IMG/VR virus record: IMGVR_UViG_2695420487_000015
Origin: a virus
Lineage: Duplodnaviria > Heunggongvirae > Uroviricota > Caudoviricetes
Direction: 5' to 3' (one strand)
DNA: 39,156 nucleotides
The notes under the pieces were generated by a model. The model searched no databases, had not been told where the DNA came from, and saw only the letters and a list, made by a program, of their open reading frames with translations. The position numbers and the translations under genes were made by a program. Of this stretch, positions 7,210-25,789 are shown piece by piece (positions within the stretch are counted from its first letter, which is position 1; each line of letters begins with the position of its first letter).

Positions 7210-8397
7210 TTATTTGCTGTTGACGGACGAGATAAGATTCGCCAGATATTTATCGGTGATGCGCTGGCGTAAGGTCAGGTGCTCGAGTGGTGGCACAGGT
7301 GTATAGTCATAATCGATAAAAAGTTTCCCGGCCTTCAGGGTTTCTTTGCTGTTGGCCTCTTCGTCGAACCAGCACGTCGCATCGATGATGTAACCGCCGC
7401 TTTTCAGCTCGCGGAATTTCGCGTTGATGCCGTCGATAATGTCGCGAATCAGCGTCGCGGTGATGGGCTTATCGTTCGCCCACATATGCCCCTCGGCCAT
7501 TGTGTCGGCGATGACCTGTGCCGTGCGGGTGTAGTTCTCAAACTGAAACAGCGGGTCGTCGGAGCAATTACGGTTACCCCAGAAGCGAAAACCATCAGCA
7601 CGAATCAGCGTGGTAACACCGGCCTCATTCAGCAGGTCGGCATCGGTGCCTTTTTCCTGCAAATCCCAGAAGACGGACGCGCTGATACCGGTGACCTCAT
7701 TGACGCCGACGTTTGACAGGGTCTTGTGCCAGCCGGTGTCATTGTCAATTTTGGCGCGCAGACCCAGCGCAATGGCGGTCGCGTAGCTGGTCGTTGTGGC
7801 GCTGGCCGTGGTATCCCATCCGAGGAATTCAGGCCAGATAATCATGAGCTCACGCGCGCTGAAATTCTCACGATAGGCAATGACGTCAGAAATGGTTTTA
7901 CAGCCCCATGCGCTGACATAGGCGAAAGCGCGCAGTTTCTGAGCTACGGAGACAAGCGCGGTCGCCACCTGCTGAGTATCGAGACCCGGCACACCGAGAA
8001 TGCGGGGCTTCACGCCAGTGACCGCTTTCGCCGTTAACAGCGCTTTCAGCCCGGTGTATTTGCCGTTCTCATCCGTGGTGCCGATGATGTTCGAAATGGT
8101 TTGCTTCTGAGCCTCTTCGTCATCGCCGGTACCCTCTGCGACACGCACGACAACAACAACCGGTTTTGACTGGTTAGCGATGAGCTGTAAGGATTTTGCC
8201 AGGGTACCTTTAGTACCGGCTTTTGAGATGGCGCTTTGTGGATTGGTAATCAGCACCGGTTCATTGAGCGGAAATGCCCCGGCGTCAGCATCGCTGGCCG
8301 TGCAGACCATACCAACGACCGCTGTTGATACCGTCGAGATTGTGCGGGTGCCGTCGTTAATTTCGACGACCTCGACACCGTGATGAAAATCACTCAT
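7210..8397 (-). CDS. FI: Tail sheath protein
   Basis: 395 aa; size, position and sequence character match P2 FI. Confidence 0.9.
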   Translation of the reverse strand: MSDFHHGVEVVEINDGTRTISTVSTAVVGMVCTASDADAGAFPLNEPVLITNPQSAISKAGTKGTLAKSLQLIANQSKPVVVVVRVAEGTGDDEEAQKQTISNIIGTTDENGKYTGLKALLTAKAVTGVKPRILGVPGLDTQQVATALVSVAQKLRAFAYVSAWGCKTISDVIAYRENFSARELMIIWPEFLGWDTTASATTTSYATAIALGLRAKIDNDTGWHKTLSNVGVNEVTGISASVFWDLQEKGTDADLLNEAGVTTLIRADGFRFWGNRNCSDDPLFQFENYTRTAQVIADTMAEGHMWANDKPITATLIRDIIDGINAKFRELKSGGYIIDATCWFDEEANSKETLKAGKLFIDYDYTPVPPLEHLTLRQRITDKYLANLISSVNSK

Positions 8398-8528
8398 CCG
8401 TTTAACTCCGTTAGTTGGGGTGAGTGATATTGTCGGGTGTACATTTACAGGAGGCTATTTGTCAGGGTTCTGCGAACGCTGGCACAACAGATGAGAAGAA
8501 TAAAAAGCGAGCTTATGCCCGCCTTGCC

Positions 8529-8942
8529 TTACTCATACTTAACCGGCCACTCGATATCCGGTGCTTTGGAAATGTCAACGCGCATAAGTAATACCCGGTA
8601 TTTTTTCCACTCAGCTAAGGCGTTAATTTCTTCTGCGCTGGCAATTCCAGAATCAACAGCATCCTGTCGCCAGCTAATCTCAGACTCTGCTTCGGTGCGT
8701 AATTCGCGTTGCATTTGCCCAGCCTGAGCGACCAGTTGTTTTGCAGACAGGGCTGGGATATCAACCCATACAGGATAACCATTTTCATCCGTCCCGAGCA
8801 TTTTCTCTTTTGGTGGATACTGGCTATAAACAGCCATGACCTCATCGCTCACACTAGCAGCATTCTCCGGCCACGCTCCGGCAGAAATATATGCTTCTTT
8901 CAGTGCTTCCGGATAAAAAACACCCTGATAAAATTTATTCAT
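8529..8942 (-). CDS. G: Tail fiber assembly protein (Tfa)
   Basis: Start moved to the ATG at 8942 (MNKFYQGVF), which overlaps the H stop as ATGA; C-terminus resembles P2 gpG. Confidence 0.7.
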   Translation of the reverse strand: MNKFYQGVFYPEALKEAYISAGAWPENAASVSDEVMAVYSQYPPKEKMLGTDENGYPVWVDIPALSAKQLVAQAGQMQRELRTEAESEISWRQDAVDSGIASAEEINALAEWKKYRVLLMRVDISKAPDIEWPVKYE

Positions 8943-10114
8943 AAATACCCCACAGCAAAAAAACAACAGTCTTCCAACGAACCGGCTGGGGCCCAGTTTT
9001 GAATACTAATTTGAGAACGATTAGCCAGCCGAACATTCATCGCCTGACTGTAACCCGTTGTTCCCCGACATCCCATTGCCCACAGGCCACCAGTTGGGAA
9101 AGCATAAGGCAGGTTGTAGATAGCATCTTCTCCTCCGCGTGTCTGAATGGTTCCCCATTGCAGCATTATCTTCACTGGGTTATCTGTGGTTGCAAGACAG
9201 GGAATGTATAAATAGCCATTTCCACTGGCGTAAAAAGTGAAATGTGATGCGCTCAATACCTGGTCCTTTCCGGTGCCCATTGACGCCAGTGCGGCCGAGC
9301 CAAGCTGCAGGGCATTCCTGAAAGCAGCCACATTAGAAATATCAGCGCCATTAGCTGATTTCTGCATCGCACCGGCAGCTTTATTTATCGTGTCTAAGAG
9401 ACCGAGATTTTGTAAAAATAACGCCACATTGGGAATATCTGCGCCATTACGTTCTTTCGCCAGACGTGCATTCGCATTATCCATCACTATTTTTACTGCT
9501 TTCAGTGTGGCAGCTATCAGTTCACTTTCGCTTGAAACACTATTACTAAGCCGCACAAATCCCTTTTCATCTAGCGTGGCGTCAGGGTGATTACGTGACC
9601 GCTCATGTGTGCGTAGCAAACTGTCAGCATAGGCTTTTACCTCGATAACCTTGCCGTCGACATACTGGCGCGTTGACAGCACGACCGACGGGTCGATTTT
9701 TAAGGTGATCGCCGACGTGCTCGAGACAACGAGAATCATGCGAATAGTCTGCGTTCGACCGCTACCCTCAGCCAGTAACGGCTTATAGGTTTCCGGGCAG
9801 TTGGCGACAGCAATCAAAATACCAGCGTCATCATAAAGACCAATTTCACGGATGAAGAAACCACCCTCATTTTCAGGAATGATTTGCTCGGCAATAATCT
9901 GACCGGCGTCGTTGGCATCCACGCCCAGTGAGTTAATCGGCGCAATACGGGTCTGGTTAATGAGCTTTGTCTGAGCCGGGTCAGGGGTCGGCAATGTGCC
10001 GTTCCCGTCACCGACGGCCATTTGTGTGATACTCAGTTTGGTACCGAGCGCGGTCGCGTTTGCCAGTCGCGCCGCGCCCTGATTGGTCAAGATGGCAAAA
10101 TATTTTGTTGTCAT
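8939..10114 (-). CDS. H: Tail fiber protein with conserved N-terminal domain and divergent C-terminal receptor-binding region
   Basis: 391 aa, MTTKYFAILTNQGAARLANA... typical of the P2 gpH N-terminus; shorter than P2 H. Confidence 0.8.
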   Translation of the reverse strand: MTTKYFAILTNQGAARLANATALGTKLSITQMAVGDGNGTLPTPDPAQTKLINQTRIAPINSLGVDANDAGQIIAEQIIPENEGGFFIREIGLYDDAGILIAVANCPETYKPLLAEGSGRTQTIRMILVVSSTSAITLKIDPSVVLSTRQYVDGKVIEVKAYADSLLRTHERSRNHPDATLDEKGFVRLSNSVSSESELIAATLKAVKIVMDNANARLAKERNGADIPNVALFLQNLGLLDTINKAAGAMQKSANGADISNVAAFRNALQLGSAALASMGTGKDQVLSASHFTFYASGNGYLYIPCLATTDNPVKIMLQWGTIQTRGGEDAIYNLPYAFPTGGLWAMGCRGTTGYSQAMNVRLANRSQISIQNWAPAGSLEDCCFFAVGYL

Positions 10115-12613: not shown

Positions 12614-12660
12614 GCTGGGAAGGATGAAGGAAAAACACCTTCAATGTAATTGAGCGGTGT

Positions 12661-12678
12661 TGTATGCTTTTTAGTACA
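12661..12678. promoter_or_regulatory. TGT-N12-ACA dyad, candidate Ogr-type activator site in the divergent V / cargo-gene intergenic region
   Basis: Exact TGTatgctttttagtACA read in sequence; P2-family late promoters use this dyad (recollection). No equivalent exact dyad was found in the P-O or G-FI intergenic regions, so chance occurrence is possible. Confidence 0.3.
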
Positions 12679-12698
12679 ACTTCAAGAGGATAACCAAA

Positions 12699-13412
12699 TT
12701 GGATAACAAGGAATATCAGAGGCACTTTGGAATAATAACTGATGAATTACAAAAGCCTTCCGATAAACATTTGAGAGCATTTACGCAGGTTGCTGACATT
12801 AGAAAGTTTGAAATTGAGATGTATTGGAAAAGAGCTACGTATTTCTGGACCATTATTGCTATTACTTTTACTGGTTATTTTGCTTTAGCCTCCGCAAATA
12901 GCTTTCCGTTCAAAAATGCATTTTCTCTTTTGCTTTCCAGTATGGGATCCGTTTTTACTCTTTCATGGTTTTTGGTAAACAGAGGTAGCAAATACTGGCA
13001 GGAAAACTGGGAAAATCACTTAGACCTGATGGAAAACGGCATAACTGGGCCGCTCTATAAAACTGTACTCTCACGACCGTCAGTCGAAGCCAAAAAAAAC
13101 GCACCTCAACTTGCGAGTACTGATAAAGATTTTATCGACAAACATATCACCGGCCCCAAAAAAATATCAGCATCCAAAATTAACCAATTAGTTGCATTTT
13201 ACTTGCTTGGCATATGGTTAATATTAGTAATGACAACAATTACTAACATCTTAAAACTATCATTCTGGAGTGAATCCACGATAGAAGTAGTGTTGAGCGT
13301 GGGAGTTTTAATTTGGTCAGCAATAGCCACTAGTTTAATGTTTTGTAAGTCAGCCACCTATACAGGAATACAGACTTCAGAGGCAAGAAAACGCTCTTCG
13401 AATTTGTTATAA
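12699..13412 (+). CDS. Cargo gene: predicted four-helix membrane protein of unknown function
   Basis: AT-rich ORF with four hydrophobic segments. Track start is a TTG at 12699 preceded by AAGAGGA; the first ATG is at 12819. Lies between tail genes V and S. Confidence 0.6.
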   Translation: MDNKEYQRHFGIITDELQKPSDKHLRAFTQVADIRKFEIEMYWKRATYFWTIIAITFTGYFALASANSFPFKNAFSLLLSSMGSVFTLSWFLVNRGSKYWQENWENHLDLMENGITGPLYKTVLSRPSVEAKKNAPQLASTDKDFIDKHITGPKKISASKINQLVAFYLLGIWLILVMTTITNILKLSFWSESTIEVVLSVGVLIWSAIATSLMFCKSATYTGIQTSEARKRSSNLL

Positions 13413-13680: not shown

Positions 13681-14757
13681 TTATTTTCGTTTGCCATAAG
13701 ACTGGGTTAGAATCGGAGTAATATCCTTAGTAAAGATATCTAGTCTTTCTTTTTCGGCTGAGAAAACATACTGTCTGGCTTGAATTACATTTTGCCTACT
13801 AATTAAGTTTGACACCTTTTCTGGTTTGCTTAGTGCAACTTTGGCACCCTTGAATATCAACGCTAAGCCCGGTGATATTGTAAAAATACATCCATTATCA
13901 AATGAAAAATCATTTTTTAAGAAAATAAAAGGAAAATCACTTGAAACAATGGCATATCCCTTAGGTGCTGAGTACAAATATACCCTACAACTACTCTCAT
14001 TGGTGATTGAGGAAAAAGGTAACGCCATAAATCTATGCATCTTTCTAAGTAAGTAAAACATTTCCCTCCGCTGTCCGCTGTCCGCATTAACTAGATACGT
14101 TCCTCCCTCCTTTAGTATAGATAACAAAGACCTCCATTCAGAACGTGGGATTATGCTCGCACCAGAAGGAATGAGATCCTTATTAGTATTCAGTACTTTC
14201 TTGATGGTGGTGTTTATATTTTTTAATTTTGGCATGGAGCCTTTATCAAAAAAATCATCCATACCTTTGTTTCTATAACATAAAAAACGGGCCATGAAAA
14301 TTGCCATGTTTTTTAAATCGTTGAAATCAATCTCATGCAAACCACTACATACTATCGAACGTGCGAATTTTTTTTCCGAAAGCTTGCCAAGCAACCAGTG
14401 TCTACGCACGAAATAATGACTACCTGAAGCATTTTTAAAATGCTCCTTTAATTTATAAAATTGCCACATTGCGTCTACAAAATCAGGGTAACAATCCTCT
14501 AGTATTTTAAAACTGTCCTCAATAAAGTTATCTCTATCCCCATCAATATAAAGAGTATGCCTTCGCTCTTGACCACAAATTTTTGTGGCATTAAGAAAAG
14601 TAATCCTTTCTTTTATTTGCTTTTTGGTGGCATCTGTTTTCACAAAACCATAAACAGTATCTTTCCCAGTCTTTGGGTCTTCAGATGTTATTTTAAAATG
14701 CCTGATATAAGTTGCAGGCAGATAATGCTGATAGTTTTGAAAAGTTCCCTTTGACAT
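13681..14757 (-). CDS. Cargo gene: DUF4238-like protein, candidate single-gene anti-phage defense protein
   Basis: AT-rich, 358 aa from the ATG at 14757, preceded by GGAGG and only 13 nt after the S stop. N-terminal HYLPATYIRHF resembles the DUF4238 signature as I recall it. Confidence 0.6.
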   Translation of the reverse strand: MSKGTFQNYQHYLPATYIRHFKITSEDPKTGKDTVYGFVKTDATKKQIKERITFLNATKICGQERRHTLYIDGDRDNFIEDSFKILEDCYPDFVDAMWQFYKLKEHFKNASGSHYFVRRHWLLGKLSEKKFARSIVCSGLHEIDFNDLKNMAIFMARFLCYRNKGMDDFFDKGSMPKLKNINTTIKKVLNTNKDLIPSGASIIPRSEWRSLLSILKEGGTYLVNADSGQRREMFYLLRKMHRFMALPFSSITNESSCRVYLYSAPKGYAIVSSDFPFIFLKNDFSFDNGCIFTISPGLALIFKGAKVALSKPEKVSNLISRQNVIQARQYVFSAEKERLDIFTKDITPILTQSYGKRK

Positions 14758-17609: not shown

Positions 17610-17706
17610 GAGTACCTCAGTAAATAGGTGGGCGGTGGACGCCGGTCGCAGTTAGGGTGAATCACCGACATTGACCAGCGTGCCGCCCGGCGCGGGGCGC
17701 GTTCTG

Positions 17707-23485: not shown

Positions 23486-23661
23486 CCCCACCTACAGCCG
23501 CCCGTCGTGGCGGCTTTACCCCCACCGCACACAACACCCTCAGCGCCACGACACGCCGTCGCCGCTTCGCTTCACCTCGTAACTCACCCACTACAACAAC
23601 AACGCCACAGCGACGCGCCCAGGCGCTGAATAAATAAATTAAATACCACGCTCAGCGCGCA

Positions 23662-23680
23662 ATGCTATCCCCGCCACGCC
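23662..23680. other. Candidate cos site (19-nt cohesive end)
   Basis: Reverse complement reads GGCGTGGCGGGGATAGCAT, resembling P2/186 cohesive ends as recalled; located just downstream of Q as in P2. Confidence 0.45.
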
Positions 23681-23952: not shown

Positions 23953-25170
23953 TTAATTAGCTTTATCAAGGCGTCCCCCCACCACCATCCGCTTGTAATT
24001 TATTGCGAACAACTTAATTTTTTCAGGGAACTTTGACGCCAAAATTATTGACTTTCTGTCTACATATGAATAAAAGGGCATTGATATCAAAATAGTTATC
24101 ATCGAAGTTAAGATAAATGTAACAAACGCACCAACGGACGGCGACGCAATGTTTTTGTAAACCCAAAAACCAACTATAGATATAACAAATGGATGAAGCA
24201 AGTATATTGAAAATGACAACTTCCCAATAAACAAGACTACATTTTTGCTCATCCCCCTTAAACATCTCCCATTCACAAAGACAGAAGCAATAATCAAAAA
24301 AGAACCAAGCGATATTGTAAACTCTGGCCATTGTATTAATATACCGCATTGAAACTGAAGGTAGAGGTAAAATTCAACCAGATCTTTATACGCAGTGCTC
24401 GCCGGTGCATACCCAACAAGATAAAGGCCAATAAACAACATAAGAAGCGATACAAACTTTCTTAACCGTCCATTATTTTCACTTATCTCGAAAGTTGATA
24501 AAAACACACCAGAAAGGAAAAGCCCATAATAAATTACATTAATACTACCAGACAAAAACATGCAAACAAATGAAATAAACGACAACCAGCGAAGAATGGT
24601 CTTGTTCTCACCAAACAGAGATATAAATCCGTATACCAATATAGAACCAAAAAACTCAATACTAATAGTCCACAGAACATAGTTATACTTTATATTACCA
24701 AAAAGCATAGCGCCAAATGAAGCATCCCATATGGCTGACACTATATTCCCATCAAAACTAAACGCAGTCATTAACGGCATTGATGCAGCGGGGCTATCCT
24801 TATCCGGAAAAAAGCCCAACAACATTATAAAATAGCAAATAATCACAGATGCTGCTACGGGAACCCCAAGCCTAATGTATCTCTTCAATGCTGATGCTTG
24901 TATATAACGTATTTCGTTATTATTTTTTTGGCAACTCAGTGACAAAACCAACCCGCTCAAAACAAAGAATAAGCTAACAGCAGATCCCCCCTTATAGAAA
25001 AAAGTAAAAGGGCTATTAAATAAATTTTCTTGCCACTTGCTATCAAACATACTGCCAGAATGCACCGAAGGTATAAACATTAAAAATGAATGCGATAAAA
25101 CGACAGCCATGGCTGCCACACCTCTTATCCCATCAAAGATTTTTACATTATTTCTCTCATTATCACTCAT
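23953..25170 (-). CDS. Cargo gene: acyltransferase family 3 membrane protein (O-antigen/LPS acetylase type)
   Basis: AT-rich, 405 aa, about 10 hydrophobic segments, N-terminal DGIRGVAAMAVVLSHS motif typical of acyltransferase-3; sits in the cos-to-A interval, the P2 tin/old slot. Confidence 0.75.
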   Translation of the reverse strand: MSDNERNNVKIFDGIRGVAAMAVVLSHSFLMFIPSVHSGSMFDSKWQENLFNSPFTFFYKGGSAVSLFFVLSGLVLSLSCQKNNNEIRYIQASALKRYIRLGVPVAASVIICYFIMLLGFFPDKDSPAASMPLMTAFSFDGNIVSAIWDASFGAMLFGNIKYNYVLWTISIEFFGSILVYGFISLFGENKTILRWLSFISFVCMFLSGSINVIYYGLFLSGVFLSTFEISENNGRLRKFVSLLMLFIGLYLVGYAPASTAYKDLVEFYLYLQFQCGILIQWPEFTISLGSFLIIASVFVNGRCLRGMSKNVVLFIGKLSFSIYLLHPFVISIVGFWVYKNIASPSVGAFVTFILTSMITILISMPFYSYVDRKSIILASKFPEKIKLFAINYKRMVVGGRLDKAN

Positions 25171-25463: not shown

Positions 25464-25646
25464 TTACTCAGCCTTTGTTAATCGTTCTTCAGCATGGGTT
25501 GCAGAGAAAACCAGTGAAAAGGAGTTATTTTTCATCAAGTTGCCTCTCACTATTTCTGCAATCAAATTCAATGCGATTTCACGGTCTCTTTCCTTACAAG
25601 TCCCTTCAGCCGTTAGACGCGCAATCATTTCGACTCGCTCAATCAT
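25464..25646 (-). CDS. Small hypothetical protein (60 aa) downstream of a LexA box; candidate SOS-controlled antirepressor-like gene
   Basis: First ATG at 25646 with a weak RBS; charged, helix-like composition. The track's longer ORF starts at a GTG and would contain the LexA box. Confidence 0.3.
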   Translation of the reverse strand: MIERVEMIARLTAEGTCKERDREIALNLIAEIVRGNLMKNNSFSLVFSATHAEERLTKAE

Positions 25647-25691
25647 AACGTGCTCACTTAATTCTCTATCCACACAACCTCCACAACGAGA

Positions 25692-25711
25692 TACTGTATA
25701 AACATACAGTA
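25692..25711 (-). promoter_or_regulatory. LexA box (SOS operator)
   Basis: TACTGTATAAACATACAGTA: exact CTGT-N8-ACAG palindrome with AT-rich spacer, close to the E. coli LexA consensus; 46 nt upstream of the small ORF. Confidence 0.55.
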
Positions 25712-25789
25712 ACACATGTTGATAAAAAATGTGAAGGAAAAAAACCAATAAATACACTGTATGTGCATGATATGGATGAATATTAACGG

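Follow-up and report, generated by a model that had tools for sequence, protein, structure and literature searches.

The question raised by the locus considered here is what separates the sheath gene FI of a P2/186-like prophage from its tail-fibre assembly gene (the G-FI junction), where P2 itself carries fun(Z). A sequence-only reading of the 39,156-nucleotide stretch of viral DNA analysed herein (IMG/VR record IMGVR_UViG_2695420487_000015; hereafter the window) had described an interval of about 130 bp without an ORF and had interpreted it as an empty Z/fun cargo slot. In the present study, the interval (8398-8528) was measured as exactly 131 bp and contained no credible ORF, and the first part of this description was thus borne out; this length is, by itself, statistically unremarkable. 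However, the slot is hardly empty. The 131 bp are very probably the boundary between two tail operons, filled by a terminator together with a late promoter of the Ogr/B type, which are orthologous to t45, the B-site and pJ in phage 186 and, for the promoter, to pF in P2.

This junction belongs to a prophage that resembles 186 (Eganvirus-like) and is inserted at ileY. The segment 7900-9300 of the window is 100% identical to Escherichia coli strain 10 (NZ_CP048330.1), and the whole window corresponds to the stretch 1120900-1160055 of that genome. The prophage spans 31.9 kb between direct repeats of 49 nt, one at each end, that differ by one mismatch (Table 1), and the attB of 186 is, according to the phage 186 record, the 3' end of ileY. 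The gene order and content also match those of 186 through CI, Int, Apl-like, CII (Phage_CP76), Fil, A, cos, Q, P / O, N, M, L and X, followed by the lysis genes, R, S, V, W, J, I, H, G, FI, FII, E, E', T, U, D and ogr/B. Phage 186 shares with this element the ileY attachment, the CI/Int/Apl/CII/Fil early region, a LexA-controlled tum and, with one mismatch, cos. A 105-nt "tRNA-OTHER" is annotated by PGAP over the right repeat copy (33470-33577). Several RefSeq pseudogenes are found in the host flanks (1-1038, 34325-35698 and 36035-36202), among them ypjCB and a gene for an alpha-amylase C-terminal domain, each of which has an internal stop. In addition, a 53-aa serine-recombinase fragment in the flank is 55% identical to the fibre invertase of one relative (L014), and the right flank may hold the remains of another mobile element.

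The genes on either side of the junction are well defined. The FI protein shows 82% amino-acid identity to both 186 J and P2 FI, and the assembly gene is the last gene of the V operon, ending with a TAA stop at 8531-8529. No feature is annotated in the gap in the RefSeq record of E. coli strain 10, and among the matches listed the gap is likewise left unannotated by PGAP in the RefSeq E. coli genomes that carry all 131 bp. The closest known counterpart is found in 186 (U32222 14058-14159), where the 128 bp between a fibre-assembly-like ORF and the sheath gene J consist of t45, the B-site, pJ and the mapped start. The two junctions have the same position, the same order of terminator, activator site and promoter, and a leader of 23-24 nt; they align throughout, with a mean column identity of 82% including the flanks. 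In contrast, the right half of the dyad is CCAGC in 186 and AGAAC in the window, the terminator stem sequences differ, and the assembly gene upstream of the junction in 186 belongs to another allele, with an identity of about 40% that is confined to the C-terminal 65 residues. P2 is homologous from GTTGT to the FI ATG, with equal spacing to the mapped start of pF, whereas its G-FI region extends over 2377 bp, in which fun(Z) (528 aa) is encoded on the opposite strand and a terminator follows G at a distance of about 365 bp. No fun(Z) homologue was found anywhere in the window, nor does the junction hold a cargo gene of the Z-region type; only about 40 bp separate the stop codon from the activator site.

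Table 1. Coordinates of the junction elements, flanking genes, prophage ends and cargo genes in the window
Feature	Position	Strand	Evidence or remark
tRNA, CAT anticodon	1598-1673	+	ARAGORN: Met; PGAP: Ile (ileY, 186 attachment site)
att direct repeat, 49 nt	1628-1676 and 33529-33577		Left copy is the 3' part of the tRNA with anticodon CAT
Ogr/B-type zinc-finger late activator, 72 aa	1831-2049	-	Pfam Ogr_Delta 8.7e-23; CX2CX22CX4C
Tail sheath gene FI	7210-8397	-	Phage_sheath_1 1.3e-32; first gene of the FI-FII-E-E'-T-U-D operon
Leader, 23 nt counted from 8420	8398-8419	-	Shine-Dalgarno GGAG 8409-8406; FI ATG at 8397
Putative transcription start, within CACTCAC	8420-8422	-	Alignment to the mapped 186 pJ and P2 pF starts
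-10-like hexamer CAATAT	8427-8432	-	7-12 nt upstream of the putative start
Spacer from activator site to -10, with conserved block CCCTGACAAATAGCC	8433-8466	-	Alignments; no -35 consensus
Predicted Ogr/B activator-binding dyad, GTTGTGCCAGCGTTCGCAGAAC	8467-8488	-	TGT-N12-AGA; 186 pJ B-site / P2 pF alignment
T-rich tail of terminator and short spacer to promoter module, TTATTCTTCTCATCT	8489-8503	-	Read from the sequence
Intrinsic terminator hairpin, AAGGCGGGC-ATAA-GCTCGCTTT	8504-8525	-	Terminator scan; 186 t45 alignment
Tail-fibre assembly gene (P2 G-like)	8529-8942 (alternative 8529-8966)	-	Caudo_TAP 1.5e-35; PHROG 188; RefSeq
8xMP/RipA-like octameric membrane protein gene, S-V slot	12699-13412	+	3.6e-36
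DUF4238-like gene, 358 aa, S-V slot	13681-14757	-	Borderline, 27.7 bits against a cut-off of 27
cos site	23661-23680		One mismatch against 186 cos
Acyl_transf_3 / O-acetyltransferase-like gene, cos-A (TO) region	23953-25170	-	Pfam 3.9e-25; PHROG 3333
Truncated tum, cos-A	25464-25757	-	81% identical over Tum residues 1-67, then diverges and stops
487-aa gene between int and the att repeat	31821-33284	-	PHROG 37220 only (unknown function, 1.7e-46)

The upstream part of the junction has the features of a rho-independent terminator, with a G+C-rich hairpin and a T-run located 3' of the last gene of an operon. The hairpin begins 3 nt past the TAA of the assembly gene and consists of a 9-pair stem and a 4-nt loop; it is followed by the T-rich tail TTATTCTT, and three T in the stem precede this tail. 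The 46-nt fold has a predicted energy of -16.9 kcal/mol (z = -4.5), and none of 200 shuffled sequences was as stable. On the basis of its alignment and position, the hairpin is the predicted counterpart of 186 t45, ending the V-W-J-I-H-G transcript, and by analogy it would do so efficiently here. The interval 8489-8503 that follows is the final variable stretch, and homology with all relatives starts after it.

The downstream part corresponds to a late promoter. It abuts the FI ATG, and the genes FI, FII, E, E', T, U, D and ogr were confirmed downstream of it. It is homologous to mapped promoters, and a cognate C4 zinc-finger activator is encoded in the same element, with the cysteine arrangement CX2CX22CX4C, which is the Ogr/B Cys motif (PMC3931495). 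Four Ogr-dependent late promoters of P2 have been summarised together with their consensus, TGT-N12-ACA (PMC3931495). The dyad at 8486-8469 matches this consensus at 5 of 6 positions, and in the extended form, GTTGT/AGAAC, 4 of 5 positions pair; the right half-site is imperfect, being AGA rather than ACA, as it is also in P2 pF and 186 pJ, where it is CCA. The start was placed by using the mapped starts of 186 pJ (record position 14159) and P2 pF (17626-17628 in NC_001895) as anchors, and the activator dependence and the exact start site proposed for this prophage follow from this orthology. The centre of the dyad would accordingly lie about 57 nt upstream of the start rather than at about -55, where the activator site of P2-like late promoters is centred; the P2 record coordinates also give -57. 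A consensus scan for sigma-70 promoters over 8200-8750 returned none, with CAATAT present as a -10-like element; such a result is expected of an activator-dependent promoter and does not count as positive evidence for one.

The dyad motif alone would not have identified this promoter. With one mismatch allowed, TTGT-N12-ACAA was found 20 times in the window compared with 19.5 expected, which is the chance frequency, and the promoter assignment therefore rests on position, on homology to mapped promoters and on conservation. Sites for the other late promoters were found at the expected places: a perfect TTGT-N12-ACAA was observed at 12660-12679, 56 nt upstream of V, in the geometry of P2 pV, and a related activator-type site lies between the divergent genes O and P, where in 186 one B site serves both. 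In P2 the mapped start of pV coincides with the V start codon, and by analogy with this geometry a leaderless V transcript may also be made in this prophage. Only 85 bp (12614-12698) separate the V start codon from the divergent 8xMP cargo gene.

Conservation among relatives was examined in 80 IMG/VR loci, whose sheath proteins are at least 81% identical to that of the window, and the 100 nt upstream of FI yielded 65 distinct sequences from 83 loci. In these 65 sequences, conserved blocks are kept at fixed spacing, namely GTTGT, the right half-site (12 nt on), GA(C/A)AAT, CACTCACCC and ACGGAGTTAAACGGATG. The GA(C/A)AAT block at -10 and ACGGAGTTAAACGGATG in the leader are nearly invariant, and the sequence between the blocks is free to vary. 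This pattern is the signature of a promoter and not that of a coding sequence or an RNA.

Taken together, these elements suggest how the two tail operons would be separated. The V-W-J-I-H-G transcript would stop at the rho-independent terminator, formed by the hairpin at 8525-8504 and its T-run. The Ogr/B activator (gene 1831-2049) would bind the partial dyad at 8488-8467, and the bound activator would recruit RNA polymerase to a promoter with a CAATAT -10 and without a -35. Transcription would then begin near 8420, and the FI message would have a leader of 23 nt in which GGAG serves as the ribosome-binding site. Since the terminator, activator site, promoter and leader tile the whole interval, the junction would be of minimal functional size, and it holds no gene.

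Two readings in which the gap nevertheless encodes a product were considered, a short gene or RNA being what the sequence-only reading had itself named as its refutation; the outcome was negative. Candidate ORFs are mechanically present: those touching the gap comprise ORFs of 10-24 codons, such as a 16-codon ORF at 8394-8444 (-) and a 24-codon ORF at 8420-8494 (+), and antisense ORFs of 55 and 96 codons that run into the assembly gene and start inside the gap, at 8424 (+) and 8437 (+). None of the gap-touching ORFs has a Pfam or PHROG match. The GTG start of the 96-codon ORF is GGG in a relative (L009) with a 98.7% identical sheath protein, and across relatives the equivalent frame is open for 12 to 96 codons and that of the 55-codon ORF for 8 to 92 codons. 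Thus, the start codons and lengths of the small ORFs are not kept even where the sheath protein is 98-99% identical; the antisense ORFs, moreover, sit opposite a conserved coding gene, and conservation in the gap follows the promoter blocks rather than codons, without 3-nt periodicity. The small and antisense ORFs were therefore rejected as genes for want of family matches and conservation, and a short unannotated protein encoded in the gap is exceedingly improbable. A small regulatory RNA, for example a 3'-UTR fragment of the G mRNA with its end at the terminator or an antisense RNA over the promoter, is also highly improbable. The stable terminator hairpin could in principle shield a 3'-end fragment, but no part of the gap is less conserved than the terminator region, which is wholly replaced in relatives. 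Whole-gap folding showed no excess structure over shuffled sequences (z = 0.45 on the - strand and 0.25 on the + strand), and no sigma-70-like promoter was found on either strand by the consensus scan. At the gathering score, Rfam detected tRNA only in the whole window, and at E <= 10 the matches within 8300-8650 were at chance level, as exemplified by THF-II with 15 bits against a threshold of 41.

A different kind of explanation is that the compact junction is the scar of a recent deletion, by which cargo or an invertible fibre segment of the ancestor was lost. Relatives with closely similar sheath proteins do carry a DNA invertase with inverted fibre/assembly segments at this place, namely L005 (sheath 99% identical), L014 and L017 (range 92-99%), and an invertase remnant only is left in L013; these modules in close relatives indicate that the fibre module is exchanged often. 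However, the junction of the window retains no remnant of an invertase. Upstream of GTTGT there is a clean terminator, which can be aligned with 186 t45 and whose sequence is common to L009. The invertase, used as a tblastn query, detected only the 53-aa fragment at 36044-36202, outside the prophage, and no Mu gix-like site with up to 3 mismatches was found. The same compact layout is, furthermore, present in 186, of which the sheath is only 82% identical, and this argues for an old and stable state. A recent deletion is therefore conceivable but unsupported, and we consider it unlikely.

The frequency of the compact layout was determined in two surveys, the counts of which are descriptive and not population estimates, given redundant IMG/VR loci and crude ORF calling. 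Junctions were scored by greedy non-overlapping ORF sets and homology labels, with one locus (L037) reassigned by hand; a simpler rule, by which the closest ORF with 100 aa or more was taken as the junction gene regardless of strand, was dropped owing to spurious antisense ORFs. In the first survey, anchored on FI and covering 72 IMG/VR loci with enough upstream DNA, 109-156 bp separated the last fibre-module gene from FI in 54 loci, and 229-494 bp without a convincing ORF in another 8. The junction was occupied in the remaining 10, and in 8 of these by a serine invertase or its remnant together with inverted fibre/assembly-gene segments; the junction ORF of L014, for instance, matched Resolvase (1.6e-51) and HTH_7. 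The other contents observed were a RelB/ParE pair (L023) and an ORF with a weak resemblance to hexapeptide transferases that does not reach the Pfam cut-off (L072). The second survey was anchored on V and included 77 loci for S-V, 58 for G-FI and 56 scored at both. The S-V distance was bimodal, being 63-66 bp in 34/77 loci and at least 700 bp in 43/77, and the G-FI distance was at most 160 bp in 30/58, 161-500 bp in 19/58 and above 500 bp in 9/58, 4 of these with invertase modules. The compact G-FI junction is thus the commonest state, as in 186, the nearest model relative. Where the junction is filled, it mostly contains a DNA invertase, and true cargo, such as fun(Z) of P2 or the RelB/ParE pair, is rare. 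The start codons of H and FI are 1717 bp apart, and few relatives with an assembly gene have a shorter span; H itself (8939-10114, -) encodes a short protein of 391 aa, of which the C-terminal domain is gp53-like. In about 35 relatives (sheath about 83% identical), no assembly gene is recognisable, and a fibre gene of 356-396 aa stops 109-130 bp short of FI.

Only one finding was mildly unexpected, namely that the module boundary at the activator site is exact to the base and that, in relatives, the 3' end of the invertase gene overlaps this site. Homology among the junction types begins exactly at GTTGT (position 41 of the 131-bp query) irrespective of the upstream content, which may be an assembly gene with a terminator, fun(Z) or a DNA invertase. 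When the query was compared with complete E. coli genomes, matches over 1-131 represented the compact allele with no feature annotated, matches over 6-131 at about 74% represented other 186-like alleles, and matches over 41-131 had a "recombinase family protein" annotated under them. Invertase modules of the Mu gin, P1 cin and e14 pin type, as exemplified by the remnant in E2348/69, occupy the same junction directly upstream of the same late promoter, whereas the window has no invertase, inverted fibre segment or detectable crossover site. The serine invertase module (Resolvase/HTH_7 with an inverted fibre C-terminus and an assembly gene) is absent from this prophage and present next to H-G in L005, L014, L017, L026, L068 and E2348/69. 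A search for crossover sites by means of inverted repeats in L014 and L017 gave nothing clear and was dropped. In three relatives with an invertase (stops at L005:2185, L014:4935 and L017:4936), the ORF enters the late promoter, in the part that maps to 8488-8462 of the window. The Ogr/B dyad is covered by the last codons of this ORF, which terminates at the TGA contained in the conserved CCCTGACAAATAGCC block, 64-65 bp ahead of the FI start codon. The recombinase gene of E2348/69 (L165:3449-4027) likewise ends 64 bp before FI and thus overlaps the activator site. No terminator lies between the invertase and the late promoter in the invertase alleles. The GTTGT edge (8488) may be a precise and recurrent module-exchange boundary, with a promoter that would double as invertase coding sequence and Ogr/B binding that could be coupled to invertase expression or to read-through out of the fibre operon, but this proposal is an unlikely one. 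If such a coupling were functional, FI would be insulated by a terminator in the "empty" allele and by none in the invertase alleles.

The wider claim of the sequence-only reading was that the accessory genes had been placed elsewhere instead of at G-FI, and that cargo slots in this family are therefore not fixed. Accessory genes were indeed found at S-V, cos-A and the int-att position. The supposed exchange was not supported, as occupancy of S-V and G-FI showed no negative association (odds ratio 1.9, Fisher p = 0.48, 56 loci); of the comparison that had been suggested across relatives, the compact G-FI junction proved to be common and compensation between the two slots did not appear. S-V and cos-A are, moreover, the other two classical variable regions, which is at odds with slots that are not fixed. 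The passage of PMC3091744 that cites Nilsson and Haggård-Ljungquist places the non-P2 genes of P2-like phages commonly at three sites, which are the right-end TO region (cos-A), the Z region with Z/fun, and the place of orf30. A cos-proximal hotspot between gpA and gpQ has been reported across 18,150 E. coli loci (PMC9122126), and both classical hotspots were recovered elsewhere along with a third between a tail protein and CI (bioRxiv 10.1101/2024.10.15.618418); the Z/fun hotspot was described there as a site of fibre swapping with frequent DNA invertases (bioRxiv 10.1101/2024.10.15.618418). P2 has all three classical slots filled, with orf30 at S-V, fun(Z) at G-FI (2377 bp) and tin and old at cos-A, and 186 leaves S-V (69 bp) and G-FI (128 bp) empty and carries tum and orf97 at cos-A. 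The positions are thus fixed, and the occupancy varies. The prophage of the window uses these known fixed slots and differs only in their occupancy, and this layout is already known and ordinary.

The cargo genes themselves deserve brief comment. The 8xMP and DUF4238-like genes adjoin each other in divergent orientation at the position of P2 orf30, and PADLOC and PHROGs gave no match to this pair. Defence against T7 has been validated for a single DUF4238 protein encoded at the cos-proximal hotspot of P2 (Rousset et al., PMC9122126), and the DUF4238-like S-V protein might, by its similarity, be a relative of that protein in a different slot. The acyltransferase at cos-A is, from its family, likely a lysogenic conversion gene that modifies surface polysaccharide. 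It lies downstream of the truncated tum and replaces the remainder of tum and orf97. The truncated gene is annotated by PGAP as a DinI-family pseudogene and is preceded, as at p95 of 186, by a LexA-box-like CTGT-N8-ACAG near 25710-25691; owing to this truncation, SOS induction of the prophage may be impaired. The 487-aa protein of the int-att position has neither a Pfam nor a PADLOC match, and the corresponding place in 186 is taken by the 83-aa orf69 alone. PADLOC returned no match for any of the four cargo proteins submitted.

Beyond a correct annotation, the significance of these results is small: the G-FI junction of this prophage can be assigned a terminator and a late promoter of the Ogr/B type by orthology to 186 and P2. 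For defence mining, G-FI is here usually empty or a host-range switch, S-V is filled in about half of the relatives, and for cos-A the role of a major hotspot of cargo has been reported (PMC9122126). Cargo in P2-like phages is therefore better described by fixed boundaries at S-V, G-FI, cos-A and the int/cI side, which are filled independently, than by slots that float.
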